DNA of 64,000 nt from contig JAJTEN010000005.1 of NCBI GenBank assembly GCA_021298155.1, positions 9,899-73,898 on the forward strand, in the 5' to 3' direction. Of the stretch, positions 17,554 to 48,641 are shown piece by piece; position 1 is the first letter of the stretch; the number at the start of each line of letters is the position of its first letter. The translations under genes and the position numbers were made by a program. The DNA comes from Sphingobacteriales bacterium (lineage in GTDB: Bacteria > Bacteroidota > Bacteroidia > UKL13-3). The notes under the pieces are model-generated. The model was given only the letters and a program-made list of their open reading frames with translations. It had not been told where the DNA came from and did no database searches.

Positions 17554-19380
17554 TTAATTTATTTGATCTCCGCGTAAAATTCTATATTGTTTTCTTACAT
17601 CCGTTAAGAAGAAACTTCCCGCATAATTTTCAATAAAGAGCTCATAATATTTAAGTGCCTCCTTAGGATTATTGAGTTGTTTTTGATGCAATTTTGCCAG
17701 TTCATATAAAGCATTATCGCCCATTATGTCTGAACCAAAATCTTTGTATACTTTTTCATAATAGCTTGCTGCTTTTTCATAATTTTTAGTGCTCGTAAAA
17801 ATCTGTGCTTTTTTAAATAAAATGTCATCAGTAAGCGCATGCTGAGGAAATAAAATAATGAGGCTATCTAAAATTTCAAGGGCACGGATATAGTTTTTTT
17901 GTACAAAATTTAAGTCGGCATGTGCAAACAATTGCAGCGGTTCTAAAATACTATCTATGGTATTGTCTTGAATAAGTAAAGAGAGCTCTAAGGCATTATT
18001 TGCTATGAGTTGGGTGGTGGCCGTTTTAAGCACATCTAATTGGGCTTTAGCCCAATCAAATTCACCTAAATAGTAGCTTAATTTTGCATTTCTTAATTTG
18101 GCTTCCTGACCCAAAGGTTCTTGTAAAAAGTCTTTATCCACTTGGCCATACAATAAAAGTGCCTCCCAAACCTCACCCTTCATTACATAAAAATCGGCCA
18201 GTTCTAATTTTATGGTGGCCTGTAAAATTCTATCAATACGCGGCATATTGATAAGTTCTTCGTAAAGTTGAATGGCAGTTTGATAGTGATTTAGGTAATA
18301 AGCTTCTAAATTAGCTAAACTTTTTATGGTGACTGCTGTATTGGGGTTTCTGCCTAATTCTTTTAATACCAAATTGTATTCGTTTGCCAATGTTTGTAAT
18401 TCAATTTGGGTATAGTTCCCAGCTAATATTTTTTTACTTCTTGCCTCTAATTCAGAACTTTTGGCATAAGTATAAAAAGGTTTATCTGCGCCTAAATCAG
18501 TTACTGTTTTAAAAATTTGTATGGCAGCGTCAAATTGTTCATTTGCCATGGCTAAAAACCCCAATTCAATTATTCGTCGGCCTTCTTCTCTGTATTTTTT
18601 ATCTAAGTTTTTGGTATAAAAGAGCGCCATGGCATATTCATTCTTTTGCACAAACATCCATATCAGCATTTCATTAAAAATGGTTCTATCTGGAAATTGT
18701 TTATTTCGCTTGAGTAAACTTTGTTTTAAAAGGTCAAAATCGGCACTATTATCTAAACTATTTTGCAATAAGCCCTGAATTTCATTAACGGTTGATTCAT
18801 CTAGCACAAGCACATTTAAAAACTCTTCAATCATCATTTTCTTATCGCCCAATTCTAAATATATGCCACCCAACTCATTGGCAAAAATGAGTTCATTGCG
18901 CAACAAAGATCTACCCTTTAAATAAGCTTGTACGGCAAATCCTTTCTCATTTCGTTTTTCTAGGGCTTTGGCCAGTTCAAAGACAGAAGATTCATTAGGA
19001 TTTAATTTTTGGATCAGCCCATTTATTTGGGATATGGCTTGTTGGTCTTCTTGTTGTAACCTATGGAGATAGGCAATATCTACTAAAAATAATGCTTGAT
19101 TTTCGAATCTTTTACTTTGTTTTTTGCTTAGCTTTTCTGCCTGATTAAATTCTTTTAATTGGATGTAACAATTCAACAGGTTCTCATAAAAATAGACAGA
19201 TTTCTGATTTTTACTTAGTAGTTTTTCATACATATCAGCAGCTTTTGAAAATTCTTTATTGGCATAAAACTGAGCGGCTAATTCTTCATCGGCTAGTTGG
19301 CATGTTCCTTGATTTGCACTCAAAATGAGCATCAAAAAACAAATACAAATTACAACCAAATTCTTTGTGTTACTCCACAT
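17554..19380 (-). CDS. Tetratricopeptide-repeat protein with N-terminal signal/anchor
   Basis: Repeated A..Y......Y..A TPR pattern along about 600 aa. Start moved to MWSNTKNLVVICICFLMLILSA (ATG at 19380), because the longer ORF would overlap the divergent flippase gene. Confidence 0.8.
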   Translation of the reverse strand: MWSNTKNLVVICICFLMLILSANQGTCQLADEELAAQFYANKEFSKAADMYEKLLSKNQKSVYFYENLLNCYIQLKEFNQAEKLSKKQSKRFENQALFLVDIAYLHRLQQEDQQAISQINGLIQKLNPNESSVFELAKALEKRNEKGFAVQAYLKGRSLLRNELIFANELGGIYLELGDKKMMIEEFLNVLVLDESTVNEIQGLLQNSLDNSADFDLLKQSLLKRNKQFPDRTIFNEMLIWMFVQKNEYAMALFYTKNLDKKYREEGRRIIELGFLAMANEQFDAAIQIFKTVTDLGADKPFYTYAKSSELEARSKKILAGNYTQIELQTLANEYNLVLKELGRNPNTAVTIKSLANLEAYYLNHYQTAIQLYEELINMPRIDRILQATIKLELADFYVMKGEVWEALLLYGQVDKDFLQEPLGQEAKLRNAKLSYYLGEFDWAKAQLDVLKTATTQLIANNALELSLLIQDNTIDSILEPLQLFAHADLNFVQKNYIRALEILDSLIILFPQHALTDDILFKKAQIFTSTKNYEKAASYYEKVYKDFGSDIMGDNALYELAKLHQKQLNNPKEALKYYELFIENYAGSFFLTDVRKQYRILRGDQIN

Positions 19381-19480
19381 ACTGATAGAAAGTAACGAAA
19401 ATAACTTTTTGTTTCTTATTTTTGAGTAGAAAGTTAATTTAACTATTTCAAAAATGATTATTTGAGTAATATTGTAAACT

Positions 19481-20953
19481 TTGAGTACTCTAAAGAAATT
19501 AGCCAGCCAAACTGCTGTATATGGTTTAAGCACCATTCTAGGAAGGTTTTTTAATTACCTTTTAGTCCCACTCTATACCCGTGTTTTTACCGATATAGAA
19601 TATGGTATAAATAGCGAATTTTATGCCTATATGGCCTTTTTCAATATTATACTTACGCATGGCATGGAAACCGCTTTCTTTAGGTTTGCCGAGAAAGATA
19701 ACTCGAAACAAATTTTTGCCAATGCATTCTTGTCTATTTTAGGTGTAGCAGGTTCTTTTTCGCTTTTCATTGGTTTATTTGGTTCGCATGTTTCTGAAGC
19801 GATTGGTTACGGATTACATCCAGAATTCATTTATTACTGTGGCGCTATTTTGTTTCTTGATAGTTTGTCTGCTATCCCATTTGCCTTATTGAGGTTTCAG
19901 AACAAAGCCTTGCGCTTTGCCATCATAAAAAACTGTAACATTTTTTCGCTGATCCTATTTAACCTATATTTTTTACTTGTGGGTCCGTTTTGGGAGGCTA
20001 AATTCGGCAGTATATTGCCATTTTATGAGCCAGGTATGGGAATTAAATCTGTTTTTATTTCCAATGTATTGGCTAGCCTCATTACATTTTTATTATTAAG
20101 CAGAGAAATCTTATCTGTTGGTTTCAGTTTTAATTATACACAATGGCGTTTAATGATAGCTTATGCTATTCCAATGATTTGGGTTGGTTTAGCAGGTATG
20201 GTAAATGAAACCTTAGATAGAGTGCTCATTAGAATGTTAACGCCAAATGTTGCAGAAGGTCAATCATTAAATGGAATCTATAGTGCTAATTACAAATTCT
20301 CGATTATCATTACCTTATTTATTCAAGCATTTAAGTTTGCTGCAGAGCCATTCTTTTTTGCCCATGCAAAAACCACAGAAAAACGAGATTTATATGCCAA
20401 GGTAATGAATTACTTTATTTGGATTTGTCTCTTTGTATTCTTATTGGTTATGTTCTTTTTGCACTACTTTAAAATATTTATTGGTACTGGCTTTCATGAA
20501 GGACTTCAGGTGGTTCCAATCTTATTATTTGCAAATATATTTTTGGGCGTTTACTACAATGTCTCTATATGGTATAAACTATCAGACAATACAAAGAAAG
20601 GTGCCCAAATTTCCTTAATTGGCGCAGTTATTACGATACTTTTAAACTTTATTTTTATACCAGAGTTTGGTTATTTAGCCTGTGCATGGACTACTTTTAT
20701 TTGTTATTTTGTAATGATGGTATTAGGTTATTTGTGGGGACAAAAATACTATCCAATTCCGTATAACTTGCCACGTGCATTATTTTATGTGAGCACCGCT
20801 TTGGCTTTATTTGTATTGGTTCAGTATTCTTCTATTTGGATCAACCCAAATTCCTTCTCAGGTAATTTTATTCGAATCATTTCTTTATTTATTTTTGTTT
20901 ACTTGGTTTTTTACAAAGAAAAGATAGTAGGCAAAAAATTAGTTACAACATGA
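19481..20953 (+). CDS. Oligosaccharide/polysaccharide flippase (MOP/Wzx-MurJ superfamily)
   Basis: 490 aa, about 14 TM. The N-terminus [33 protein letters not shown] is typical of Wzx-like flippases. TTG start. Confidence 0.85.
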
Positions 20954-22576: not shown

Positions 22577-24283
22577 ATGAATTCAATTAATCGCATTTTA
22601 TTATTTTTTGGCTTACTTGTTTTAAGTCAACTGTCTTTGGCTCAGCCCGAAAAGAATTTGCAAGACGAAAAAAAGCGTTTAGAATTTGACAAGCATTTTT
22701 TTGAGGGGATGAAAGAGAAAATGATTCAAAATTATGAAGCGGCGGAAAGCAATTTCAAAGCAGCCATTTTGATTGAATCTAAAAACGCAAATGTGCATTA
22801 CCAGCTGGCTAATATTTTAGTCGTACAAAAGAGGTATTCGGAGGCCATAATGCATGCTGAGCGAGCTTTTCATTTAGAGTCTAATAATAGTTGGTATAGC
22901 AAGTTTTTAATAGAATTATATAAAAGAGACGGACAGCTAAGCGAGGCCATTAAGGTTTGCGAATTGGCTTATGCGCAAACAAATGATCTTCATTTTTTGT
23001 ATGAATTAGCCTCATTTTATGATGCTAAAAATGAAGCCAAAAAGGCGATAAAGGTTCTGAATACAATAGAGAAAGAAAAAGGAATTCAGGAAGATATTAT
23101 TCGTAAGAAAGAAGATATTTTTCTGAAGCAAAAGAATGTTAAGGCAGCCATAAAAGAGATTGAAAAGTTGTGCAATGCTTTCCCAGATCGGATGAATTAT
23201 ATGGGTATGCTTGCAGATTTATATATGAATGCCAATAGGCAAAAAGATGCCTTGAGTATCTATGATAAGATTCAAAAAACAGATCCTCGCAATGGATATG
23301 CAGCCTTGTCTTTGGCAGATTATTATCAAAGTAAAAAGGATATAGAAGCGTATTACAGTCAGTTAATGCTGGCTATGAAATCTTCATTAGAAACGAATGT
23401 GAAGATGCAAGTAATGGCTATGTTAATACCAGGAGATGTATTAGGTATTGATCATCGTGCAAGGTGTAAAGCCCTTATTGATACTTTTATTGTGTATCAT
23501 CCAACTGCTGCAGAACCTTATCTGCTAAAGGGAGATATGGCCATGCAGGCAAGAAATTTGGAAGAAGCTAGGTTGCAATATTTAAAATCAATTGATTTAA
23601 ACAATAGCAGTATTTTACCTTGGGAGCAGGTGTTGTTTTGCGATCAACAGCTACCCAATTATCAATATTTATTGCAAGATTGTGAAAAAATGATGGTGGT
23701 GTTTCCACAAAATGGAAATGTGTTTTTACTCCATAGTATTGCAGCTAGGCAGTTAAAAATGTTTGATACCGCATTTGAATCGGCGCGTAAAGCGGTTTGG
23801 TTGGCCAATGATGAAGATAATTTGTTGCAGAGTTTAGGGAATTTAGGAGATATGGCCCACTATGCTAAAAAGTATGAAGTTAGTGATTCTGCTTTTGAAG
23901 CAATATTGGCAATTGAACCCAATAGCGCGCTTTCATTAAATAATTACGCTTATTTTTTATCTCTACGAAATACGCAGTTAGATAAGGCGATGAATATGAG
24001 TAAAAGGTCTTTAGCATTGGATCCTAATAACCCCTCAAATTTAGACACTTATGCTTGGATCTTATATCAGTTAAATAACCTAGAAGAAGCTAGAAAGTAT
24101 GCAGAAAAATCTTTGGAAATTTCTCCTGATAATGCGGAAGTTTTAGATCATTTGGGCGATATTTTATTTGGTTTGGGGGAGAAAGAATCTGCGCTGAAAA
24201 ATTGGCAAAAAGCGCAAGCGCTTGGTATGGACAGTTCAGTACTATTGGAAAAAATTAAAACAAAATCACTCATTAAGCAGTAG
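22577..24283 (+). CDS. Secreted tetratricopeptide-repeat protein
   Basis: 568 aa. Signal peptide, then many TPR units (e.g. NNYAYFLSLRN..LDKAM..SKRSLALDPNNPS.LDTYAWILYQL). Confidence 0.85.
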   Translation: MNSINRILLFFGLLVLSQLSLAQPEKNLQDEKKRLEFDKHFFEGMKEKMIQNYEAAESNFKAAILIESKNANVHYQLANILVVQKRYSEAIMHAERAFHLESNNSWYSKFLIELYKRDGQLSEAIKVCELAYAQTNDLHFLYELASFYDAKNEAKKAIKVLNTIEKEKGIQEDIIRKKEDIFLKQKNVKAAIKEIEKLCNAFPDRMNYMGMLADLYMNANRQKDALSIYDKIQKTDPRNGYAALSLADYYQSKKDIEAYYSQLMLAMKSSLETNVKMQVMAMLIPGDVLGIDHRARCKALIDTFIVYHPTAAEPYLLKGDMAMQARNLEEARLQYLKSIDLNNSSILPWEQVLFCDQQLPNYQYLLQDCEKMMVVFPQNGNVFLLHSIAARQLKMFDTAFESARKAVWLANDEDNLLQSLGNLGDMAHYAKKYEVSDSAFEAILAIEPNSALSLNNYAYFLSLRNTQLDKAMNMSKRSLALDPNNPSNLDTYAWILYQLNNLEEARKYAEKSLEISPDNAEVLDHLGDILFGLGEKESALKNWQKAQALGMDSSVLLEKIKTKSLIKQ

Positions 24284-26401: not shown

Positions 26402-27205
26402 ATGCAAAGAAAAAATTTACTTATTTTATTATCTATACTTACTTTAGGCTTAAGTGTGGGTTCTTTACATTCGTTTCCAACAGGTGCTCCATCAGATGGT
26501 AGAACAGGTTCACCTGGTGATGGGGGTAAAACATGTTCCTCTTCTGGGTGTCATTTTGGCTCTGTATCATCAATAAACAATGTTATTAGCAGTAATATTC
26601 CAGCAGAAGGATATACACCTGGAGAAACATATACCATAACTGTGAATGTGGGTGGAAGTGGACGAAAAGGATTGTGTGTAAGTCCGCAAAAAGCAGATGG
26701 AACCTTAATGGGAACGCTTACAGCAGGCGCAGGAAATACTATTGTTGGAGGAAAATATATCACGCATTCTAATTATATTTCTGCCACACCAGCAGTTTGG
26801 ACCTTCACCTGGGTAGCGCCAGCCGCAGGTTCTGGTAGGGTAATTTTTTATGGCGCTTTTGCTAATGATAGAACTATGGTTCGTAAATCTGAATATTCTG
26901 TAGAAGAAAAGATTGCTTCTGGAGTTAATGAAAACAAAGGCTTCTCGCAATTCTCAGTATTTCCTAATCCATCTGTGAGTAATGGAAGTATTCACATTGG
27001 TTTCAAATCTAAAGTGTCTGATAACTTAAAAATTACATTGGTAGATATTACCGGTAAAGAGCTTGCTGAATTTATGAATGATATGGTAGAACCTATGTAT
27101 CAAGAGCATACATTTGAATTACCTAGTTTATCTAAAGGCGTATATTTTATTCGTTTGAACGGGAATAAAGAAAGTATTACTCGAAAATTGTTGATTCAAA
27201 ATTAA
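26402..27205 (+). CDS. Secreted Reeler-like domain protein with T9SS C-terminal sorting domain
   Basis: FPTGAPSDG...CSSSGCH, YTPGETYTITVNV, ITHSN and WTFTWVAPAAGSGRVIFYGAF follow the Reeler-domain pattern. The C-terminus FSVFPNPS...GVYFIRLNGNKESITRKLLIQN is a classic T9SS type-A CTD. Confidence 0.7.
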   Translation: MQRKNLLILLSILTLGLSVGSLHSFPTGAPSDGRTGSPGDGGKTCSSSGCHFGSVSSINNVISSNIPAEGYTPGETYTITVNVGGSGRKGLCVSPQKADGTLMGTLTAGAGNTIVGGKYITHSNYISATPAVWTFTWVAPAAGSGRVIFYGAFANDRTMVRKSEYSVEEKIASGVNENKGFSQFSVFPNPSVSNGSIHIGFKSKVSDNLKITLVDITGKELAEFMNDMVEPMYQEHTFELPSLSKGVYFIRLNGNKESITRKLLIQN

Positions 27206-28404: not shown

Positions 28405-28626
28405 ATGTACTGGACACTAGAACTAGCCTCTTACTTGGATGATGCCCCATGGCCTGCTACCAAAGATGAATTAATTGATTATGCCATTCGTTCTGGAGCA
28501 CCACTGGAGGTAATTGAGAATTTACAAGAATTGGAAGATGATGGCGAGCCATTTGAAACCATTGAAGAAATTTGGCCAGATTATCCTACCAACGAAGATT
28601 ACTTTTATAACGAAGACGAATTATAA
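28405..28626 (+). CDS. Small acidic protein (DUF2795-like)
   Basis: 73 aa. WPATKDELIDYAIRSGAPLEVIENL resembles the DUF2795 core. The C-terminus NEDEL is encoded by the palindrome. Confidence 0.65.
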   Translation: MYWTLELASYLDDAPWPATKDELIDYAIRSGAPLEVIENLQELEDDGEPFETIEEIWPDYPTNEDYFYNEDEL

Positions 28627-28638
28627 TTCGTCTTCGTT
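28609..28638. repeat. Perfect 30-bp palindrome spanning two convergent stop codons
   Basis: aacgaagacgaatta|taattcgtcttcgtt. Both arms read AAC GAA GAC GAA TTA TAA in frame on their own strand. Confidence 0.95.
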
Positions 28639-29790
28639 TAGTTGCGTTAAGTTTGCATTCTGTTGCACAAAACTGGCTTGATATTGCTCAAGAGCTGGGT
28701 TTCCCTTTTCTTGCAGATTAATACAATAACGGAGTCCAGCACCAGCACCTATCGACTTTACCAAACCTAAATCGAGTAATAATTGAAAGTCGCGTTGGAT
28801 TGTTTTTCTATTGCAATCAAACTCATTTACTAATTCCTTGGTAGAAATAAACCCACGGTGTTGTACAATGTACATAATGAGCTTTTGTCTTTTATTTAAA
28901 ACGCTATCATCTATTTCTTTCAATTTATAGCCGCGTTCAAAAACATAATTCATGATGTTTTTTTGACGTGGATTTAGCTTTTCAAAATCAACTTGTTTTC
29001 TGAAATAGCTTTTAAATAATTCTTTTAGTCTACCTAATTGTGCTTGTTGTAGCTGTAAACCAAAACCAATTTGCTCATTTAAGCTATTTTCATCGCCTTG
29101 AATGGCATTAATTACGATTTGGTCGTAGGCTTGTTTATTAATATAAATTTCGTGCGGCAAACACAATAATCCAAACATATCCATTTGGTGTTTTTTGAGC
29201 CAAAAGTTTTGCAATAAAATGGCAAATTTTGATTTAGCTTCACTAAACAATGGCAGCGACATTATTCTAAAATGTAAAATCCAGCTTTGTACAATCGGAT
29301 GAAATTCTTGATCGTTATTTAAAAAATCGAAGACATTCTCTAATTCAATCTCTGCTTCTAACCCTAATTTCTCCCGTAATTTTATTGTATTGGCTGAGAA
29401 TAAATTTACTTCATTTTTATTTTGGTGTAAATCATCAATCAAAATTCTTTGTAACTGGTATAAAAAAGAAATACTTAAATTCTCGTGTAGTTGCTCATCA
29501 ATAAAGGTTTCGGCTTTTTGGAATTGTTCTACAGCGCGTTCAGCCATATTGGAAGCGCGTAGGTTTTTATTAACTAAGTATTTTACAGTTTTAACATCAA
29601 GTAGATTTTGGTCTAGGGCATTGGCATAGTAGTTTCTTAAAATTTTACTATTCATTTTCTCAATGCTACGAATAGAATCAGGCAAGTCAATGAATTCAAA
29701 TATCTTGGCAAGTTCTATTTGTTCATTTACACACTGCAAGAATGCATCATCTACAGATAAAATCGGTTCGTATTTATTGATTAGTATCAT
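28621..29790 (-). CDS. Fic-fold protein with degenerate active site and C-terminal winged-helix HTH
   Basis: 389 aa. EFHPIVQSWILHFRIMSLPLFSEAKSKFAILLQNFWL aligns to the Fic core hP....H..f..IHPFxDGNGRxxRll, but the HPFxDGNGR is replaced by LPLFSEAKS. The C-terminus LNKRQKLIMYIVQHRGFISTKELVNEFDCNRKTIQRDFQLLLDLGLV is a DeoR-like HTH. Confidence 0.6.
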   Translation of the reverse strand: MILINKYEPILSVDDAFLQCVNEQIELAKIFEFIDLPDSIRSIEKMNSKILRNYYANALDQNLLDVKTVKYLVNKNLRASNMAERAVEQFQKAETFIDEQLHENLSISFLYQLQRILIDDLHQNKNEVNLFSANTIKLREKLGLEAEIELENVFDFLNNDQEFHPIVQSWILHFRIMSLPLFSEAKSKFAILLQNFWLKKHQMDMFGLLCLPHEIYINKQAYDQIVINAIQGDENSLNEQIGFGLQLQQAQLGRLKELFKSYFRKQVDFEKLNPRQKNIMNYVFERGYKLKEIDDSVLNKRQKLIMYIVQHRGFISTKELVNEFDCNRKTIQRDFQLLLDLGLVKSIGAGAGLRYCINLQEKGNPALEQYQASFVQQNANLTQLNEDEL

Positions 29791-29808: not shown

Positions 29809-29842
29809 GAAAAAGGCAGGCCTGTTAAGCCTGCCTTTTATT
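29809..29842 (-). terminator. Rho-independent terminator downstream of the glycosyltransferase operon
   Basis: aaaaggcaggc-ctgttaa-gcctgcctttt. On the minus strand it is followed by a T5 tract. It lies ~135 nt after the stop at 29979. Confidence 0.6.
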
Positions 29843-29978: not shown

Positions 29979-32903
29979 TTAGTTTCCGCCAAGTGCTCTG
30001 TACTTATCCATGCATTGTTTAGCATATTCAGGTTGGTTCAATTTGCTAAATACTTCTGCTAATTCTCCCCATGCTTCTCTCATATTTTGATTCATACCCA
30101 AGGCAATTTGATAGTTGTCTGAAGCTTTTTGCAGGTTACCAGTTAGGTTGTATGCTTTGGCCAAATAATAGTATACCTCTGGAATACTTGCATTATGTTT
30201 TTTAGCCATTTCTAACTGTTTAATGGCATTGCCATAGTCGTTTAAGTTTAGATAAGCCAATGCACTGTAATACCAACTCTCTGTTACATTTTCCTTGTAT
30301 TTTGTGCTTTTGCCAAATGCTTCTGTGGCTTTGGCAAATTCTTTTTGGTTAAAATATACCAAACCTAAATTGCTGTAGGCAGTGAAATTTTCAGGATAGA
30401 TCTCTATTGCCTTCTTTAAGGTAATTTCTGCGCTATCCATCTTGGCCAAATTGAGCAATGAAAATCCTAACATGCGCCATGCTTCCTCATCTTTTGGGGC
30501 GTATTTCACGGCTTCTCTAAAATAAAATACAGATGAATCAAACTGGGATTTGTCTAAAGAGTTATAGCCCAATGGCATATAGTAATTTTCTCGTTTTATT
30601 ACCGCTGCTAATGGAATTCCATCTGCAGTTACCGTATACACTGTGCCTTTAGGTGGGAAAGAGCCATTCTGCAATTCATTTTTAGAATAGGTTCGTGTTG
30701 TTAAGATTAAATAATCCCATTTTTGTTTTTGTTCCTCAGTTTCTCTCGTCCAAACAAATTGCAAACGTGGGTTAATTTGATGTGCCCAATAAGCTGCGGT
30801 AGTTGTTTCATTGTTAATACCTACAAGCAAAGTATCGTTAGGGTGTTGTTTGGCAATCCACTCTGCTGCCTCCCGGCAAGAATTACTATAATAATCAGTT
30901 TCATAATTGCCATAGGCCCCTGCTAATCCACCTACTAATTCATTAAAATAAACATATTGATTTGGGTGATTTTGTACAATCCAAATAGCGGGTTTCACAA
31001 AAAGTACTGATAAAAATAGCGCTATACCTAAAGCAATTATTTTTTTCTGACCCAATAAATAATCAAAAGTAAGTGCCGCTAATACTACCGCAAATGGTAA
31101 AATAAATAAGTAATGTCTCCAGCCATTATAGTAATTAATATTGCTGTATTCTGCATATAATATTGGGAAGAATAACATAAATGTGAGCATTGCCCAATTG
31201 CCCAATCCTATTTTTTTACTTAAACCTAAAACCAAAACAATAGAGGCAATTACACCTATAATCAAATATAACGGATTGCCAATACCTAAAAACTTAAATA
31301 CATAATACCAAGGGGCATCGGTAATCATATACATGCGTTGTCCCTCAAAAAGTTCAACATTATTGGTGTAAAATGCATTTTCTGCAGCTTTAATATAGGC
31401 CTGAAAAGGGTGTTTTAATGGATTATTTAATGCATATGGCCATAAACTTATGCCAAGTAAATAACCCATTGTGGCTACCATTAAAAATATTTTTAAAAAT
31501 GGGAAGAACATATCGCCAAATTTTGCCTCTTTTCTGCGCAATTTATCAAGTGCATATACTGCCAAGAATAATCCAAAATAAGCGACCAATAAAAATGCAC
31601 CAACGCGCGAGGCTATGCCTATTCCAATACCAAATGCTAACCAAAATAAATCTCTAAACTTGGGTTTAGGTAAGCTGCGCATTACTTTTACTATAAAATA
31701 GCCAGCAAATGCAAAGCCTGTTGCAAATGGAATATCTGTTGGATTATTCATGCTATGTCCCAACCAACCTGGGTTGAATTGCATAAATAGTATTCCTAGC
31801 AAGGCAGCTCGCCAGCCTGCCAACTCAAAAGCCAATAGTGCTGTAAAAATTAAACCTATTAAGCCGTAAATTGAGTTAATAAAATGCCTTGTTTCATAAA
31901 TACCAGTACCAAACCAATTGTAGGTAATGGCAGCTATGGTATTCATTTGCTCGCCATAAAACCGATATGCCTGTCTAATATAATCTGCGCTGCTTGTACT
32001 TTCTGCCAAGGCGGCTGTGTCTGATCCAAAACTTGATAGGTAATTATAGGCCAGTTGTGAGTATTCGTTATGTGCTTTCTCATCCCAAGTGCTACCGTAG
32101 TCTTGACTCAATATGGGCATTGCGAAAAAGCTAACTAAAAACACCGCAAAAAAGGCAAATCTATACATTGGATGATTGCCATCTTGCCAATTATTTTCTT
32201 TGTTTTTAAAGTGCCACCAAGCATCTTTAATAAAGAAGTGAAAGCGCAGACTAAAAATATTTTTTAGTACACTTACTATGCTTAATTTTTTTATTTCTTC
32301 AGCTGCTACAGCAAACTCTGAGGTTTTTAATTTGTAACCTCTAGCCAAATTTAAACTTTGATGATAGGTATCGGCAGTAACTAATTCATGATTTAACCAT
32401 GCGGAAATGTCGTTGGTTTTCCCCAGTAAAATTTGCGCATTATTGTCGCTATACTGCACCGGAGTAAATACCCTCATTAAGCTATTGCTTATTCTGTTCA
32501 AGAAAGGTGAGTTTGATTTTCCTTTCTGCATAGCGCTTGCTACATATAAGGTTTCTTTATGTATATTTTTTTTATACGTCTGAACCAACTGAACCAAACT
32601 CCCAAAGTTTTTAGGTGTTTCGTAAAGTACCAAAGTAATTCCACCCGAAGCCAGACTGGCCATTGATGCAAAGTTCTGATTTAGTGTTTGTGTGGGTTCA
32701 AATACTTGTATTTTTACTTTTTGTTTCTGTTCAAACTCTTCAATACCTTTATTTGTGAAAGCTGCTGATACCAAGAAAAGTAGCTCAATGTCTAATTTGG
32801 TTTTAGAAACGAAATGTTGAATATTTGCCCAATAGGCAGCATCTACCCCACGCGCATCTGCTAAAATAGATATTTTATTTTCTGAGAGTAATGGTTTTTC
32901 CAT
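29979..32903 (-). CDS. Three-part membrane glycosyltransferase: N-terminal GT2-like domain, GT-C (PMT/ArnT-like) polytopic core, C-terminal TPR array
   Basis: 974 aa. Residues 1-240 are soluble with a GT-A-like pattern (ISILADARG..., ...GGITLVLYETP..., FLNRISNSLMRVF...YSDNNAQ). The first TM is followed by a loop with STWDEKAHNEY (the D-E motif of PMT/ArnT-type GT-C). There are 12 or more TM. The last ~200 aa are 5-6 TPRs. Confidence 0.8.
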   Translation of the reverse strand: MEKPLLSENKISILADARGVDAAYWANIQHFVSKTKLDIELLFLVSAAFTNKGIEEFEQKQKVKIQVFEPTQTLNQNFASMASLASGGITLVLYETPKNFGSLVQLVQTYKKNIHKETLYVASAMQKGKSNSPFLNRISNSLMRVFTPVQYSDNNAQILLGKTNDISAWLNHELVTADTYHQSLNLARGYKLKTSEFAVAAEEIKKLSIVSVLKNIFSLRFHFFIKDAWWHFKNKENNWQDGNHPMYRFAFFAVFLVSFFAMPILSQDYGSTWDEKAHNEYSQLAYNYLSSFGSDTAALAESTSSADYIRQAYRFYGEQMNTIAAITYNWFGTGIYETRHFINSIYGLIGLIFTALLAFELAGWRAALLGILFMQFNPGWLGHSMNNPTDIPFATGFAFAGYFIVKVMRSLPKPKFRDLFWLAFGIGIGIASRVGAFLLVAYFGLFLAVYALDKLRRKEAKFGDMFFPFLKIFLMVATMGYLLGISLWPYALNNPLKHPFQAYIKAAENAFYTNNVELFEGQRMYMITDAPWYYVFKFLGIGNPLYLIIGVIASIVLVLGLSKKIGLGNWAMLTFMLFFPILYAEYSNINYYNGWRHYLFILPFAVVLAALTFDYLLGQKKIIALGIALFLSVLFVKPAIWIVQNHPNQYVYFNELVGGLAGAYGNYETDYYSNSCREAAEWIAKQHPNDTLLVGINNETTTAAYWAHQINPRLQFVWTRETEEQKQKWDYLILTTRTYSKNELQNGSFPPKGTVYTVTADGIPLAAVIKRENYYMPLGYNSLDKSQFDSSVFYFREAVKYAPKDEEAWRMLGFSLLNLAKMDSAEITLKKAIEIYPENFTAYSNLGLVYFNQKEFAKATEAFGKSTKYKENVTESWYYSALAYLNLNDYGNAIKQLEMAKKHNASIPEVYYYLAKAYNLTGNLQKASDNYQIALGMNQNMREAWGELAEVFSKLNQPEYAKQCMDKYRALGGN

Positions 32904-32929
32904 AAGGTATAAAAATTCTAGTGGTGGTT

Positions 32930-33478
32930 TTATAGTTTTTCGAAAACAAACAGATTGTTTAGTCCCAATTGAAACCTTTCTTTATGCAATAGTTTAAAAT
33001 AGGGTGCTTTAAAAATAACTTCGGTATCTTCTGGTTTATACCCATAATGTTCCTCTAAACTCATTCCTTCAATAAGTTTAAGCTTCAGCAATACCTCCAA
33101 AATTTGGTCTACTTGTGGCGATGGAACGGTTATAATTAATCGTCCTTTTGGAAGCAGGTAGTTGTAGCAATCTATTGCAAGTTGAGTTTGTTGCGCAGTA
33201 GGAATATGCTCCAAAACAGCCAATAGGGTAATGGCATTGAATAATTCTCCTTTCGGACAAGCATCAGGGAAATAGCCGGGGTATAGTTCATAAAATTCAG
33301 TGCTAATTTTTGCCTCAAGTGTAGGGTCAACACCAATGCCTTTTGAAATATACCCGCGCCATTGTTCAAACATTACCCCATCCACACTCCCAATATCCAA
33401 CACACTATCATTTTTTCTTACAAAGCGTTTTGCTTGCTTAATTCTAACGTTTTGTAAATACCTGTCTAGCAATTTCAT
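32930..33478 (-). CDS. Class I SAM-dependent methyltransferase (small)
   Basis: 182 aa. SVLDIGSVDGVMF (motif I, partly degenerate), GIGVD, ITLLAVLEHI, LLPKGRLIITVP. Confidence 0.72.
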   Translation of the reverse strand: MKLLDRYLQNVRIKQAKRFVRKNDSVLDIGSVDGVMFEQWRGYISKGIGVDPTLEAKISTEFYELYPGYFPDACPKGELFNAITLLAVLEHIPTAQQTQLAIDCYNYLLPKGRLIITVPSPQVDQILEVLLKLKLIEGMSLEEHYGYKPEDTEVIFKAPYFKLLHKERFQLGLNNLFVFEKL

Positions 33479-33488
33479 ACAATTCGAA

Positions 33489-34655
33489 TTATTTTTTATT
33501 TACCTGTAATACACTCAAGAAAAAGCTAGAGAGTATGGTTTGTAAACCAACAATTATGGCAATTACACTAGGAATAACTTTCCTTAATATCTCAGAGTAC
33601 TCTAATGGTCCGAAGTTTTTTGCCTCCCACAATGACAAAGAATATAAGGTGCCACCAACTCCTGCAAACAATATGAGTAAACCTATTACTAAACCAAGTT
33701 CCATGGAAATTATATCGGATACTTTAGCCAATGAATTGTTTTGTGGTAGGAATCCCGCTTGAACTGCGTATGTTCTCGTAAAAATTCCAAAGCTTACTGC
33801 TTGGTATCCAACAATAATAAAAGCTCCAGCATACAGCAGGGTATTGGTGTCAAAAACCACGTGAGGGAGCATTTCTATTGGGCCACGCACAATAAAAATA
33901 CTCATAACTAAACCTAACAACATTAAGAAAATGCCGGGGTATAAGAAAAGCCATCTCGGACTATAAATCAATAAGAACCTTAAGTGTCTCCAGCCATCCC
34001 GCCAAGTGCGTAAATGTGGTGGTCTGCTTCTACCATCTTTGCTTAAAGTAGTTGGCACTTCAGCTATATTTAATTTAAAAATAGTAGCTTTTACCACCAT
34101 TTCACTGGCAAACTCCATTCCAGTAGTTTTCAAATCTAGCAAGCTTACAATGTCTTGTCTAAACCCGCGTAAACCGCAGTGAAAATCGCTAACAGGACAA
34201 TTAAAAAATAATCTTCCAATAAAAGATAAAACGGGATTGCCAAGGTATCTGTGCAAAAAGGGCATAGCTCCTGGTGCAATTCCACCCTTAAATCGGTTTC
34301 CCATTACTAAATCTTTACCAGTTCTAAGTTCGGTTAAAAAAGGAGTTAGGTTCGAAAAATCGTAGCTATCATCACTATCGCCCATTACCACATATTTGCC
34401 TCTAGCCGATTCAATGGCTCCCATGAGCGCGCTACCATAACCTTTTCTTGGAATGTCTATTACCCTTGCCCCTAGGTCGATAGCCATTTTTTGTGAACCA
34501 TCTGTGCTGCCATTGTCGCCAATAACAACTTCTCCATTTACCTGGTTGGCATGCATCCAAGCAAAAGCTTTTCGAATGCATACTTCAATCGTTTCTGCCT
34601 CATTTAAACAAGGCATTACAACGCTTAATTCAATATTATTATTTGGTTGATTCAT
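33489..34655 (-). CDS. Membrane-anchored family-2 glycosyltransferase (polyprenyl-phosphate sugar synthase type)
   Basis: 388 aa. LSVVMPCLNEAETI, VVIGDNGSTDGS, VVMGDSDDSYDF (DxD), then four C-terminal TM helices. This is the architecture of GtrB/ArnC/DPM1-like enzymes. Confidence 0.88.
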   Translation of the reverse strand: MNQPNNNIELSVVMPCLNEAETIEVCIRKAFAWMHANQVNGEVVIGDNGSTDGSQKMAIDLGARVIDIPRKGYGSALMGAIESARGKYVVMGDSDDSYDFSNLTPFLTELRTGKDLVMGNRFKGGIAPGAMPFLHRYLGNPVLSFIGRLFFNCPVSDFHCGLRGFRQDIVSLLDLKTTGMEFASEMVVKATIFKLNIAEVPTTLSKDGRSRPPHLRTWRDGWRHLRFLLIYSPRWLFLYPGIFLMLLGLVMSIFIVRGPIEMLPHVVFDTNTLLYAGAFIIVGYQAVSFGIFTRTYAVQAGFLPQNNSLAKVSDIISMELGLVIGLLILFAGVGGTLYSLSLWEAKNFGPLEYSEILRKVIPSVIAIIVGLQTILSSFFLSVLQVNKK

Positions 34656-34714: not shown

Positions 34715-35899
34715 TTATGTTTTTGATTCTTTGATTTTTAGCTTTACATCCTCAACGGCATCAATAATAGCGGCCTTAAGTTCGTCTGTGTTAATTTTTT
34801 TAGCAGCAGAAATAAAAATTGCGGGATAATTTTCTTTGGCCATCCATGATTTTTTTAACTGTAAAATATACTCTTGCTTATTCTCTATGGTTTCATCACC
34901 TAAAACAAAGGGTTCTTTTAATTGATCTATTTTGTTAAAAACCAGAATAACTTCTTTATTCAGAGCGCCTATTTCTTTTAGGGTTTCATTCACTACATGG
35001 ATGTGGTTTTCGAAGCTGGGGTGACTAATATCTACCACATGTAATAAAATGTCTGCCTCCCTAATTTCATCGAGGGTCGACTTAAAACATTCTACTAATT
35101 GATGCGGTAATTTACGAATAAAACCAACGGTATCGCTTAAAAGAAACGAAGCTTCTGGCCAGCTTACTTTGCGCACTGTACTATCTAATGTTGCAAATAA
35201 TTTATCTTCAGCAAATACCTCACTTTTTGCGAGAACATTCATGAGGGTAGATTTGCCCACATTTGTATAGCCAACCAAAGAAACGCGTGTTTTTAAATCT
35301 CTATTTCTGCGCTGTGTTGCGGCCTGCTTATCTATAACGTCTAATCTTTCTTTGAGTTTTGTGATGGTATTACGTAAAATTCGCCGGTCTGTTTCAATTT
35401 CAGATTCTCCGGGTCCTTTCATACCAATGCCTCCTTTGTGTTTGCTTAAATGTGTCCACATGCGGGTAAGACGGGGCAATAAATATTGTGTTTGTGCTAA
35501 TTCTACCTGAAATTTTGCTTGTGCACTTTGCGCACGTGATGCGAAAATATCTAAGATTAAATTACTTCTGTCGAGGATTTTGCATTTGAGTGTATGTTCT
35601 AAATTGCGAATTTGAGATGGACTTAATTCATCGTCGAATAGTACGATATCTATTTCGTTACTGGTAACATAATCAGCAATTTCTTGAAGTTTTCCCTCGC
35701 CAATAAAGGTTCTTGGGTTAGGGTAACTTAGTTTTTGAAGGAATCTTTTTTTTACCAATGCTCCTGCCGTATGTGCTAAAAATGCCAATTCATCCAAGTA
35801 TTCTTCAGCTTGTTCTAATCTTTGGTGTTGGGTAACTACACCAACTATCACAGCCTCTTCTTGCTTTTTTGCGGTACTAAATGATTTTGTTCGAGCCAT
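34715..35899 (-). CDS. hflX: GTPase HflX
   Basis: 394 aa. HflX N-domain, then GYTNVGKSTLMN (G1), DTVGFI (G3), NKID (G4). Confidence 0.95.
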   Translation of the reverse strand: MARTKSFSTAKKQEEAVIVGVVTQHQRLEQAEEYLDELAFLAHTAGALVKKRFLQKLSYPNPRTFIGEGKLQEIADYVTSNEIDIVLFDDELSPSQIRNLEHTLKCKILDRSNLILDIFASRAQSAQAKFQVELAQTQYLLPRLTRMWTHLSKHKGGIGMKGPGESEIETDRRILRNTITKLKERLDVIDKQAATQRRNRDLKTRVSLVGYTNVGKSTLMNVLAKSEVFAEDKLFATLDSTVRKVSWPEASFLLSDTVGFIRKLPHQLVECFKSTLDEIREADILLHVVDISHPSFENHIHVVNETLKEIGALNKEVILVFNKIDQLKEPFVLGDETIENKQEYILQLKKSWMAKENYPAIFISAAKKINTDELKAAIIDAVEDVKLKIKESKT

Positions 35900-45958: not shown

Positions 45959-46109
45959 AGGAATTTGGGGTAATGGCGCACATAATACGATTCATTTTCT
46001 TAATAGAATACTGCCTTGGTTTATTCATTGGCTCTCCTTGCTACATTTTTAACTCAATAATTATTCTTAGTAAAGGCCTATCTTGCGTTTTCAAAAAAAT
46101 CGTGTTTAT

Positions 46110-48641
46110 ATGAAAAAGCTTTCATTTTTGATCCTATTTTTGGTTGGACAGTTCGTTTTACTTGCTCAAACCAATTTGCCAACCAGTTGGAATTTTTCTA
46201 ATCCGGGCATTGCAAATCCACCTGCGGGTTGGACAATGAACTTGGGGTCAAATGGAAATCTTACCTATGCCTTTGGTATTGGTGATGCACTCTCTTGTAG
46301 GTTAGATGCCACAGGTGAAAATTTTGTTATTCACTACAGCGGTAAGTCGGGCCCTTTAAGCTATTATTTGAGTCCACAAAATGCGGGTGCAGCTTGGGGT
46401 GGGCAATTTGATGTTCAGCAAAGTGCAGATGGGGTAAGTTGGACCAATTTACGTTCCATAACAACCAAGGCAACTACAGTTACTAATTATACAAATGGGA
46501 GATATGTAGATTTTCCGGCTGAATCATCAAGATTTATTCGATTTGTTTTTACTCAGAAATTACCCGGCGGTGTGGCAGGTACTCCAGGCGGAAATATGGG
46601 TGTAGATAGTGTTTGGTTGCAAGCACCTCCTGCCTCTCCAGCTGCTAATTTAGCTGTGTTGAGAGGTGCTACCAATTTTGTTAGTGGTGCACAAACAGTA
46701 ATTGGAAACAGCACTGCTACCAGCTTCACTTTTCAGAATAAAGGGTCGGTTCAAACCTTAACCATTGATAGCATAGTGTTTACCGGAGCAGCTGCTACAG
46801 ATTTTTCTGTGAGTGGTGTGCCTGTTTCTATTAATGCAAGTGCTAGTGCCAATTTAAATGTACAGTTTACGCCAGCAGTCAATGGCACCAGAAGGGCTTT
46901 GATGTTCATTTATTCTAACGACTCATTAAAAAATCCATTTATACTCGACTTATATGGTGTTGGGGGAGCATTTGCAACCGAGCCATTGGCACGTATTGAT
47001 ACCATTAACTTCACAGAAATTAAATCTTTTTCCTATCGGGTAAATACTTCGTATGTTGGACAAAAACCAGAGCGCTTCTTGTTACTTAAAAAACTCGGCT
47101 CAACAGTAACTGAAATCCCTGTGGATGGCATCAGCTATAAAAAGGGTGATTATATTGGTTCGGCCCAAGTTGAATATGTTTCTGATACCTTATTAAGCTA
47201 TCAACCTACTTATGTTTTGGCAAATAAAACCTATCATTATGCTGGATTTACTTTTAATGGTCCAACTGGTTTTGAAAATTATAATACCAGCAGCAAGGCA
47301 ACTGCCAGTGTAAGCACAACGGGCAGAACACCTGGTTCTTATTACGCAGGGATTAATCCGAGCAATCCCAATTTTGTTACCAGTTTAACGGCAAAAATTA
47401 ATCCGCACGATACCATTTATTATAGTAATTATATTTCTAGAATGGTTAATCCTTGGTTAACGCGCGATACTTCAAATGGTAAAAAGGTAGTTACATGCGT
47501 ATATACTAAGCATCAGTTTTTGTATGATGAGCCTTTTTTGTGGGCAGCTGGAAATAATGGTGCAGTTTTAACACGTGAACATACATGGCCTCAAAGCTGG
47601 ATGCCAAGTAATATGGGTAATCCAAATTGGCCAAATGCACCGGGAACAAGTAAAGAGTTGCCAGAATACAATGATTTACATAATTTATTTCCTGCACATC
47701 AAGCAAATGCCAATGGAAGAAGAAGTAATAACCCGTTTGATGAAGTAGTTACTCCAACTTACACTGCGCCAACCGGACTTGGTATAGTGGGTAGAGACAG
47801 CGCAAGCAGAGTAGCTTATGAGCCAAGACCAGAGCAAAAAGGAGATGTTGCACGTGCTTTGTTTTATATGGCTGCCTGTTACCACGGTATTGGCGGTTTA
47901 AATTGGTCTATTCCCTCGCAGCAAAATGTCGACTTATTAAAACAGTGGCATCAAATGGATCCACCAGATGATTTTGAAATTGCGCGCAATGAATTTATTG
48001 CCCAAACCCAAGGAAATAGAAATCCATTTATAGACTTTCCGCAATGGGTAAATAGGATTAATTTTAGAAACATGAGCTATATTGCCGATACCACGCCAGC
48101 TCAACCAAAAATTACTATTACTAGTCCTTTAGCATCTGATACATGGGGCGTTGGAAAAAGATTATTAATTAGCTGGCTGAGCCAAGATATAGACTCTGTA
48201 GATGTTTTTTTAAGTTTAGACTCTATGCAAACCTGGTTTAGTGGTGGAACGCATTTGGCTACTATAGATTCCTTTTCCATCTTGGCTGCTAGTCCGTTTA
48301 CCAATCCTTATGGAGTGGTAAGGATTAAAGATAAAAACTCAAGTACAGCAGATACGTCAGCCTATTTTGCTTTAGACATGACCAATACTTTGCATGAAAG
48401 CCAATTATTAAATAAGCTGCAAGTTTATCCTAATCCGTTTAGTAGCAGTTTTTATATCCATTGGTCTGAACCAAATACAAAAGCAGAAATTACCTTACTG
48501 AATGTAATGGGTTCAGAAATGAAACATTTGGAAATAACAGAAAGTACAGAAGTAAATGTGAGTGATTTGCCCGTTGGTATATACTTTTTACAGGTAAAAA
48601 CAGGTGGTAAGCAAGTAACGCAAAAACTAGTTAAGTACTAG
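46110..48641 (+). CDS. Large extracellular endonuclease I family protein with T9SS C-terminal sorting domain
   Basis: Signal peptide MKKLSFLILFLVGQFVLLAQ. An Ig-like/choice-of-anchor-D-like segment (TFQNKGSVQTLTIDSIVFTGAAATDFSV). Endonuclease I motifs: REHTWPQSW, NDLHNLFPAHQANANGRRSNNPF, GDVARALFYM, GNRNPFID. CTD: VYPNPFSSSFYIHW...GIYFLQVKTGGKQVTQKLVKY. Confidence 0.85.
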   Translation: MKKLSFLILFLVGQFVLLAQTNLPTSWNFSNPGIANPPAGWTMNLGSNGNLTYAFGIGDALSCRLDATGENFVIHYSGKSGPLSYYLSPQNAGAAWGGQFDVQQSADGVSWTNLRSITTKATTVTNYTNGRYVDFPAESSRFIRFVFTQKLPGGVAGTPGGNMGVDSVWLQAPPASPAANLAVLRGATNFVSGAQTVIGNSTATSFTFQNKGSVQTLTIDSIVFTGAAATDFSVSGVPVSINASASANLNVQFTPAVNGTRRALMFIYSNDSLKNPFILDLYGVGGAFATEPLARIDTINFTEIKSFSYRVNTSYVGQKPERFLLLKKLGSTVTEIPVDGISYKKGDYIGSAQVEYVSDTLLSYQPTYVLANKTYHYAGFTFNGPTGFENYNTSSKATASVSTTGRTPGSYYAGINPSNPNFVTSLTAKINPHDTIYYSNYISRMVNPWLTRDTSNGKKVVTCVYTKHQFLYDEPFLWAAGNNGAVLTREHTWPQSWMPSNMGNPNWPNAPGTSKELPEYNDLHNLFPAHQANANGRRSNNPFDEVVTPTYTAPTGLGIVGRDSASRVAYEPRPEQKGDVARALFYMAACYHGIGGLNWSIPSQQNVDLLKQWHQMDPPDDFEIARNEFIAQTQGNRNPFIDFPQWVNRINFRNMSYIADTTPAQPKITITSPLASDTWGVGKRLLISWLSQDIDSVDVFLSLDSMQTWFSGGTHLATIDSFSILAASPFTNPYGVVRIKDKNSSTADTSAYFALDMTNTLHESQLLNKLQVYPNPFSSSFYIHWSEPNTKAEITLLNVMGSEMKHLEITESTEVNVSDLPVGIYFLQVKTGGKQVTQKLVKY

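Follow-up and report, generated by a model that had tools for sequence, protein, structure and literature searches.

We analysed a 64,000-nucleotide (nt) stretch of DNA (the window) from a Sphingobacteriales bacterium (assembly GCA_021298155.1, contig JAJTEN010000005.1), in which three consecutive genes encode a membrane glycosyltransferase of family 2 (GT2; gene 1), a soluble S-adenosylmethionine (SAM)-dependent methyltransferase (gene 2) and a large fusion protein with a GT2-like N-domain, a transmembrane (TM) core of the GT-C type, an alpha/beta domain and tetratricopeptide repeats (TPRs; gene 3). We think it very probable that their products charge a membrane lipid with a sugar, add a methyl group to this sugar and pass it on beyond the inner membrane, and we tentatively regard the trio as a system of lipid-carrier-dependent periplasmic glycosylation whose acceptor is slightly more likely to be a protein than a glycan or lipid. 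From the conservation of their linkage, the genes appear to form a functional module rather than a set of chance neighbours. The logic of the pathway, in which a lipid-linked sugar is made, methylated and transferred by a GT-C enzyme, had been put forward in an initial annotation of this DNA, and it is well supported by folds, topology, conservation and linkage.

The genes are separated by only 10 nt (33479-33488, genes 1 and 2) and 26 nt (32904-32929, genes 2 and 3), and hflX (34715-35899, minus strand; TIGR03156, E 1.3e-131) lies 59 nt upstream of gene 1. To follow this arrangement in other genomes, we compared 78 related loci from species-representative genomes, all from Bacteroidota; enrichment and aminotransferase counts were made on 73 loci, and a census of partner genes on the 52 loci with enough flanking DNA. 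The order GT2, methyltransferase, GT-C was retained in about 20 of the 78 loci. In the census, a GT2 signal, which could come from a separate gene or from a fused N-domain that was still detectable, was found at 43 loci, a methyltransferase at 35 and both at 33. Within 1.5 kb of the GT-C gene, GT2 matches reached 2.26 per 10 kb, compared with 0–0.22 farther away, and methyltransferase matches reached 2.11 per 10 kb, compared with 0–0.17, indicating a local enrichment of at least 10-fold.

In the closest relatives, synteny extends over the entire region, hflX and the genes farther downstream included, and the trio could therefore be neighbours by descent only, without acting together. We consider this extremely improbable, because the local enrichment is accompanied by a linkage that outlives the synteny: the gene order persists without hflX synteny in loci L013, L014, L017, L019, L023 and L053, and non-orthologous partners substitute for one another. 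The GT2 partners belong to unrelated families (the 4-TM type, soluble proteins of 225–257 amino acids (aa), and proteins of 310–329 aa), as do the methyltransferases (182, 190, 201–204 and 231–275 aa). Some loci have a 201–204-aa methyltransferase adjoining the GT2 and GT-C genes, and others a soluble 225–257-aa GT2 with or without a methyltransferase of 190 or 231–258 aa. The adjacency of hflX was confined to close relatives of the module locus, and hflX was therefore treated as a matter of synteny, not function. The initial annotation had asked about co-conservation of the trio across Bacteroidota; in the loci compared, the linkage of GT2, methyltransferase and GT-C is real and reaches beyond local synteny.

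The strongest evidence for a module came from the distribution of fused and separate GT2s. In L076, L067 and L080, the GT-C protein carries an intact fused GT2 with DDGS/NDGS, DxD and DTQCGFKLY motifs, and no separate GT2 was found within 10 kb of these GT-C genes; in Taibaiella and Draconibacterium, the GT-C protein has no N-domain and a soluble GT2 gene lies 20–740 nt upstream. This complementary pattern suggests that the transferase requires one functional GT2, either fused or separate. In the window, the N-domain of gene 3 appears to be a decayed GT2 that has lost its catalytic motifs. The profile built from 35 homologous N-domains aligned collinearly with the GT2 profile of gene 1 over 191 columns (hhalign probability 95.8%, E 7.3e-9), with YETP of gene 3 at the position of the gene 1 DxD, as had been noted at the outset, and PF00535 matched six of the 35 homologous domains. 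We regard the window domain as decayed because it gave no Pfam GT2 match and because the positions for DDGS, DxD and QxGF(K/R) are variable across 51 homologues. Considering the complementary distribution, it is probably the fossil of a formerly fused sugar-lipid synthase, whose activity would now come from gene 1; the pair would clearly exemplify how a catalytic domain decays to a pseudoenzyme as its function passes to a separate gene. Alternatively, the domain might still be an active glycosyltransferase with unusual motifs, so that gene 3 would be self-sufficient and gene 1 would work in another pathway. Relatives with an intact fused GT2 exist, and an acidic residue, E95, occupies the DxD-equivalent site. 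We nevertheless judge this very unlikely, given the absent Pfam match, the variable motif positions and the separate intact GT2 that adjoins the decayed fused domain in the surveyed loci.

Gene 1 has the layout of GT2 polyprenyl-phosphate glycosyltransferases, namely a GT-A domain with a DxD motif followed by interface and TM helices. Its hydrophobic segments were placed by hydropathy at residues 234–264, 273–292, 309–342 and 356–375, and its DxD region aligned with the DAD motif region of DPMS. The best solved relatives were P. furiosus DPMS (5mlz, E 1.2e-10) and ArnC, which aligned end to end, and GtrB (sll0501) matched weakly (E 3e-4). The top NCBIfam matches were AglJ (7.8e-36), Dol-P hexose transferase, PpgS and ArnC; since all of them remained far under their equivalog cut-offs (AglJ, 124 vs 325 bits; ArnC, 32 vs 529 bits), none of them fixes the sugar. 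We predict gene 1 to be a polyprenyl-phosphate glycosyltransferase of the DPMS/ArnC/AglJ class, in agreement with its first assignment to the enzymes that load a sugar onto a lipid. Its orthologues have a mean column identity of 80%, and the group is highly conserved, with full-length identities of 55–62% in Cyanobacteria, Actinomycetota, Acidobacteriota, Chloroflexota and other phyla.

Gene 2 is best described as a small, minimal class I SAM methyltransferase. Its score against Methyltransf_23 (30.6 bits) exceeded the gathering score of 27, which bears out the original assignment, and the conserved motifs VLDIGS-DG, LLAVLEHIP and GR-IITVPS were recognised, motif I reading GS-DG rather than GxGxG. 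No TM segment was detected by hydropathy, and the protein is therefore placed in the cytoplasm. Comparison with solved structures gave no useful match, and no similarity to AglP was found.

The AlphaFold2 model of gene 3, based on 51 homologues, has four parts (predicted local distance difference test score (pLDDT) 89.5, predicted template-modelling score (pTM) 0.84). As searches of solved structures with the full-length protein returned nearly only TPR proteins, the core was modelled separately (pLDDT 91.3, pTM 0.92). With this core model, Foldseek ranks 1–35 were all GT-C enzymes with a probability of about 1.0, comprising ArnT, which came first (E 8.4e-8), STT3, AglB and PglB (E 1e-6 to 3e-4), ALG9/ALG12, Pmt4, DPY19, AftA/B/D and EmbA/B, and membrane proteins outside GT-C appeared only at E > 0.1. 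The highest target-normalised TM-score (template-modelling score) among the 35 was 0.55, reached by both Pmt4 and ALG12. The sequence profile of the core had ArnT as its sole match among solved structures (E 0.027). Gene 3 scored 25.1 bits against PMT_2 (PF13231), for which the cut-off is 26.1, and the relatives P0278, P0261 and the L071 protein scored above it (27.8–34.8 bits); some relatives also matched PF02366 (PMT), none of them with MIR. The model thus places the core in the GT-C fold, as the initial annotation had proposed, and none of the 35 leading matches points to another membrane protein family. Its loop-1 Asp-Glu motif likewise held, and its estimate of 12 or more TM helices did not: the model and the positive-inside loop pattern give 11.

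The first periplasmic loop contains the sequence STWDEKAHNEY (residues 271–281), in which D274 was conserved in 51 of 51 homologues, W273 in 49 and E275 in 45; the Asp was also invariant in wider alignments of 43 and 59 sequences. D274 is therefore the likely catalytic residue. Together with D274, the invariant polar residues D295, R339/H340, N386/N387/D390, R433, W488 and Y592/G594/R596/H597 all map to loops or helix ends that are predicted to be periplasmic, and the Lys/Arg-rich loops are cytoplasmic, indicating that the active site faces the periplasm. In ArnT and PMT, basic residues bind phosphate, and by analogy the N593-G-W-R596-H597 segment is a candidate lipid-phosphate binding site. 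The alpha/beta domain carries a conserved NHP...YVYFNE...YETDYY..N..R block with near-invariant residues. Where five to six TPRs had been expected, we found six (residues 773–970), which form twelve helices spanning residues 775–970 in the model and matched a consensus TPR and the TPR domain of OGT in Foldseek. Given the 11-TM topology and the cytoplasmic N-domain, these repeats are predicted to be periplasmic.

Features of the three-gene module and its downstream hairpin (positions in the window)
Feature	Positions	Strand	Basis
Gene 1, membrane GT2, predicted polyprenyl-phosphate sugar synthase, 388 aa	33489..34655	(-)	PF00535, E 1.2e-24
DxD region GDSDDSYDF, residues 92-100 of gene 1	34356..34382	(-)	nine residues invariant in 11 orthologues
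Four C-terminal TM helices of gene 1, residues 234-375	33531..33956	(-)	hydropathy
Gene 2, predicted soluble class I SAM-dependent methyltransferase, 182 aa	32930..33478	(-)	Methyltransf_23, E 3.5e-7
Gene 3, predicted pseudo-GT2/GT-C/alpha-beta domain/TPR fusion, 974 aa	29979..32903	(-)	AlphaFold2 model
Putatively decayed cytoplasmic GT2 (GT-A) domain and long interface helix, residues 1-235	32199..32903	(-)	hhalign
Predicted GT-C transmembrane core, 11 TM helices, residues 245-645	30969..32171	(-)	core-only model
W273-D274-E275, first periplasmic loop, predicted catalytic Asp	32079..32087	(-)	conservation
N386-N387-P-T-D390 motif, periplasmic turn TM3/TM4	31734..31748	(-)	N386, N387 and D390 invariant
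N593-G-W-R596-H597, periplasmic end of TM10	31113..31127	(-)	G594, R596 and H597 invariant
Periplasmic alpha/beta domain, residues 646-772	30588..30968	(-)	secondary structure from model
Six periplasmic TPRs, residues 773-974	29982..30587	(-)	TPR_1/2/8/17, E 1e-13 to 1e-18
Terminator-like hairpin, AAAAGGCAGGC-TTAACAG-GCCTGCCTTTT	29811-29839	(-)	perfect 11-bp stem, 7-nt loop, T-run

We propose the following pathway. At the cytoplasmic face, gene 1 would use a nucleotide sugar to load polyprenyl (undecaprenyl) phosphate with one sugar, as its family membership suggests. Gene 2, whose part is suggested by its recurrent linkage, may methylate the sugar in the cytoplasm, either as a nucleotide sugar or on the lipid carrier in the manner of ArnD and AglP. 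AglP, a SAM-dependent enzyme that methylates a sugar linked to dolichol phosphate, provides a precedent for methylation on a lipid carrier. The lipid-linked sugar would then be flipped by a route not encoded in the locus, and gene 3 would transfer it to a periplasmic acceptor, presumably at a GT-C site around D274, N386/N387/D390, R433 and R596/H597. We assume a polyprenyl-phosphate-linked donor for gene 3 because a GT2 of the DPMS/ArnC class adjoins it. The choice of acceptor would fall to the six TPRs together with the alpha/beta domain, which is conserved; one or several proteins of the periplasm or outer membrane may serve, perhaps modified on Ser/Thr.

A protein acceptor is slightly favoured over a glycan or lipid. 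TPRs are protein-binding modules, and OGT, SPY and TMTC use them for substrate choice; to our knowledge, TPR arrays fused directly to a glycosyltransferase have so far come only from protein-modifying enzymes (OGT, SPY, TMTC). PF02366 in some relatives is consistent with a protein acceptor, as is the score of Pmt4, a protein O-mannosyltransferase, which ties with that of ALG12, an enzyme of lipid-linked glycans. The initial annotation had the TPRs pick protein or glycan acceptors; as to protein, this was overstated, being drawn from the TPRs only.

Several observations weigh against the proposed pathway or against its protein acceptor. Neither a GT2 nor a methyltransferase was found within 10 kb at about 10 related loci, for example in the complete genome CP012155, and the related loci share phylogeny, so that the enrichment counts are not independent events. 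No small multi-TM open reading frame of the GtrA or ArnE/F type, which might encode a flippase, was found near the module; cyanobacterial loci with gene 1 orthologues do have an EamA/SMR-like 4-TM gene. Our literature search found no characterised member of the gene 3 family. ArnT, a lipid A transferase, is the nearest solved structure and the sole sequence-profile match, an ArnB-like aminotransferase operon in Taibaiella suggests an arn-like handling of amino sugars by at least some members, and periplasmic TPRs also scaffold polysaccharide export (BcsC, PgaA, AlgK).

The same pathway might serve a polysaccharide or glycolipid instead, for example lipid A, lipopolysaccharide (LPS) core, O-antigen, capsule or peptidoglycan, with the TPRs docking to an envelope assembly or export machine, and we take this to be a possibility of some weight. 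Besides the first place of ArnT in both structure and profile searches, the position of a periplasmic alpha/beta domain C-terminal of the core resembles the ArnT layout, and most characterised bacterial three-component systems of a GT2 and a GT-C protein (Gtr, Arn, CsbB/YfhO, GacI/GacL) act on glycans or lipids. The operon in question (Taibaiella chishuiensis, L071, 7379-12058) comprises a DegT/ArnB-type aminotransferase (366 aa), a soluble GT2, a Methyltransf_11 protein and the GT-C/TPR protein, followed by a TetR regulator, and this member probably handles a methylated amino sugar. However, a search of the related loci for DegT aminotransferases found only this one (1/73), and no LPS, lipid A, O-antigen or capsule genes were present in the window or among the recurrent neighbours of related loci. 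The arn-like or O-antigen setting that the initial annotation had considered was thus not seen, the context being one of housekeeping genes. The known company of glycosyltransferase-fused TPRs and the PMT matches of some relatives also speak against a glycan or lipid acceptor.

Our preferred reading, with a protein acceptor, has a more specific form, in which gene 3 would be a TMTC-like bacterial protein O-glycosyltransferase that places a single methylated sugar on TPR-chosen periplasmic or outer-membrane proteins, and its N-domain would be a cytoplasmic docking or hand-over site that couples gene 1 and the methyltransferase to the transferase and aids the movement of the lipid-linked sugar across the membrane. 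We think this form unlikely. If it were true, this aid to membrane passage would explain the absence of a flippase gene, and Bacteroidota would have a second, substrate-specific protein glycosylation system beside their general O-glycosylation. In TMTC proteins, luminal or extracytoplasmic TPRs come after a GT-C core of 11 TM helices, and the closest homologue of solved structure is ArnT (PMC7801869). Gene 3 resembles TMTC1–4 in combining an 11-TM GT-C core with a C-terminal extracytoplasmic TPR array, but it has a 125-residue alpha/beta domain between the two and an N-terminal GT2-like domain, and no similarity to their sequences was detected beyond the level of the GT-C clan. The early description of gene 3 as a TMTC/PMT look-alike therefore holds for the architecture and fails for the family: DUF1736, PMT, MIR and PMT_4TMC were unmatched, and ArnT was nearest.

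A connection to the general O-glycosylation of Bacteroidota, which had also been raised, is unlikely. Gene 3 would in that case be the oligosaccharyltransferase that moves an undecaprenyl-diphosphate glycan to D(S/T)(A/I/L/V/M/T) sites; this transferase was still unidentified in July 2026, and the GT-C core of gene 3 has oligosaccharyltransferase-like Foldseek matches in STT3, AglB and PglB. We give this hardly any credence, because the general system transfers a preassembled oligosaccharide and gene 3 is conserved with a partner of the monophosphate-sugar synthase type rather than with a locus for oligosaccharide assembly. In addition, no gene 3 homologue from Bacteroides, Porphyromonas, Tannerella or Flavobacterium johnsoniae was among the matches listed, which came mostly from metagenome-assembled genomes, and the candidate that a 2026 preprint predicts for the general transferase, YfhO, belongs to a different GT-C family.

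We compared the module with known systems. As in the Arn pathway, a membrane GT2 would load undecaprenyl phosphate, a cytoplasmic enzyme would modify the sugar before flipping (ArnD there, the methyltransferase here) and a GT-C protein with a C-terminal periplasmic alpha/beta domain would do the transfer; ArnC also aligns with gene 1 over its full length. In contrast to that pathway, no ArnA, ArnB, ArnD or ArnE/F genes were found in the window, and gene 3 differs from ArnT in having 11 rather than 13 TM helices in its core, in its added TPRs and pseudo-GT2 domain, and in a sequence identity of only 16%. The Gtr-type systems (GtrA flippase, GtrB GT2 and GtrX GT-C; CsbB/GtcA/YfhO; GacI/GacL) similarly place a polyprenyl-phosphate monosaccharide synthase beside a polytopic GT-C protein, but the module has no small flippase gene, has a methyltransferase as its regular third component, and has TPRs and a decayed synthase domain on its transferase.

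With the PMT/Ppm1 systems of fungi and Actinomycetota, the module shares the loop-1 Asp-Glu motif and, as predicted for it, a polyprenyl-phosphate sugar donor made by a GT2; some relatives exceed the Pfam PMT threshold, and gene 1 orthologues of Streptosporangiales adjoin the pmt region. The window protein differs in matching none of the PMT, MIR and PMT_4TMC families and in having TPRs in place of MIR. In the N-glycan assembly of Haloferax volcanii, AglJ is the top NCBIfam match of gene 1, with a score far under the cut-off, but gene 2 is unlike AglP and gene 3 is not an oligosaccharyltransferase of the AglB type. The module thus resembles the three-component Arn and Gtr systems in logic and TMTC in architecture, and is not a strict member of the Arn, PMT or TMTC groups. 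As far as we could find, two of its features have not been described before: a methyltransferase as a regular component, and the fusion of the transferase to a decayed synthase domain.

Gene 3 appears by sequence to represent a distinct family in the PMT/PMT_2 clan with no characterised member. About 90 full-length homologues were found in Bacteroidota metagenome-assembled genomes, labelled just 'TPR repeat protein', and the family as a whole is large and neglected, with about 1,000 clusters (1,036 representatives at 50% identity, E <= 1e-30). More than 550 stretches matched among GTDB species representatives, the best 80 of which were all from Bacteroidota. The N-domain may be present or absent in family members, and the TPRs range from zero to many more than the six of the window protein. 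Source records give the homologues of the module proteins generic names ('TPR repeat protein', 'glycosyltransferase family 2 protein' and once 'dolichol-P-glucose synthetase'). GT-C proteins with TPRs from uncharacterised prokaryotes have already been mentioned by Eisenhaber et al. (PMC7801869). In public records, the contigs of L026, L035, L043 and L053 are titled 'uncultured Bifidobacteriaceae' or 'Bifidobacterium'; as they encode this Bacteroidota family, these labels are probably wrong.

The family very likely marks an envelope modification in a phylum important to gut, freshwater and soil habitats, and the recurrent methyltransferase points to methylation as a routine step of the lipid-carrier pathway. 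If the acceptor is a protein, the module would offer a tractable bacterial model of TPR-guided GT-C glycosylation, as in the human TMTCs. Related trios occur in the cultured Taibaiella chishuiensis CGMCC 1.12700 (L071) and Draconibacterium aestuarii Z1-6 (L077), which makes the proposal testable.

Loci of gene 1 orthologues in other phyla (L087–L160) suggest that the logic of a GT2 with a methyltransferase also exists outside Bacteroidota. In Microcoleus and Microcystis, a block consists of an EamA/SMR-like 4-TM protein (130 aa), a GT2 and a Methyltransf_11 protein (219–226 aa), near a 555–655-aa protein with about 12–14 TM helices. In Streptosporangiales, the gene 1 orthologue lies between Pmt-RsmI-(8-TM, 521 aa) and MetG-TatD. 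Profile comparisons of the polytopic neighbours in these phyla with GT-C were unmatched, as was the positive control, a canonical Pmt, so that these comparisons carry no weight; only a mixed set gave a weak signal (78.6%, E 1.7e-5). Precomputed annotation places PF26629 on all gene 1 homologues P0103–P0222, and our local Pfam copy gave no such match for gene 1.

Other genes also recurred near the GT-C gene in related loci. A gene for an FAD amine-oxidase-like protein (476–485 aa) was a divergent upstream neighbour at 13 loci (L001/L055, L026, L032, L035–L038, L064, L066 and others), most of which have no adjacent GT2 and methyltransferase. In L019–L021, L040 and L041, a protein of 651–652 aa with a weak GT2 signal is encoded about 660 nt downstream of the GT-C gene.

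A terminator-like hairpin lies 140 nt past the gene 3 stop, with an RNA folding energy of -19.2 kcal/mol (z = -4.9; none of 200 shuffles equalled that fold). A simple consensus terminator scan of the window did not list it. Coordinates of the open reading frames, TIGR03156 and this folding energy agree with the layout first described, in which hflX and a hairpin bound three closely spaced genes. Directly downstream of the hairpin lies a gene (28621-29790, minus strand) for a protein of 389 aa that carries a DeoR/HTH_11 winged helix at its C-terminus. The gene stays downstream of the GT-C gene in 19 of the 78 related loci and is kept in the distant L039, L043 and L058, where hflX and the other neighbours are gone; the protein may regulate the module or be one of its partners.

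The window has a G+C content of about 35% and contains type IX secretion system (T9SS)-type cargo proteins, housekeeping genes (uvrA, glmS) and a TonB-dependent receptor. With its T9SS cargo and housekeeping genes, it is a region of a Bacteroidota chromosome and not an LPS or capsule locus. Two more TPR-rich proteins, of 660 and 568 aa, are encoded at 17554-19536 (minus strand) and 22577-24283 (plus strand), respectively. T9SS cargo-like proteins are encoded on the plus strand at 26402-27205 and 46083-48641, which fits a Bacteroidota origin; one of the pair is an Endonuclease I protein with a Por_Secre_tail domain, and the other has 267 aa and a C-terminus that was judged by eye to be sorting-domain-like.

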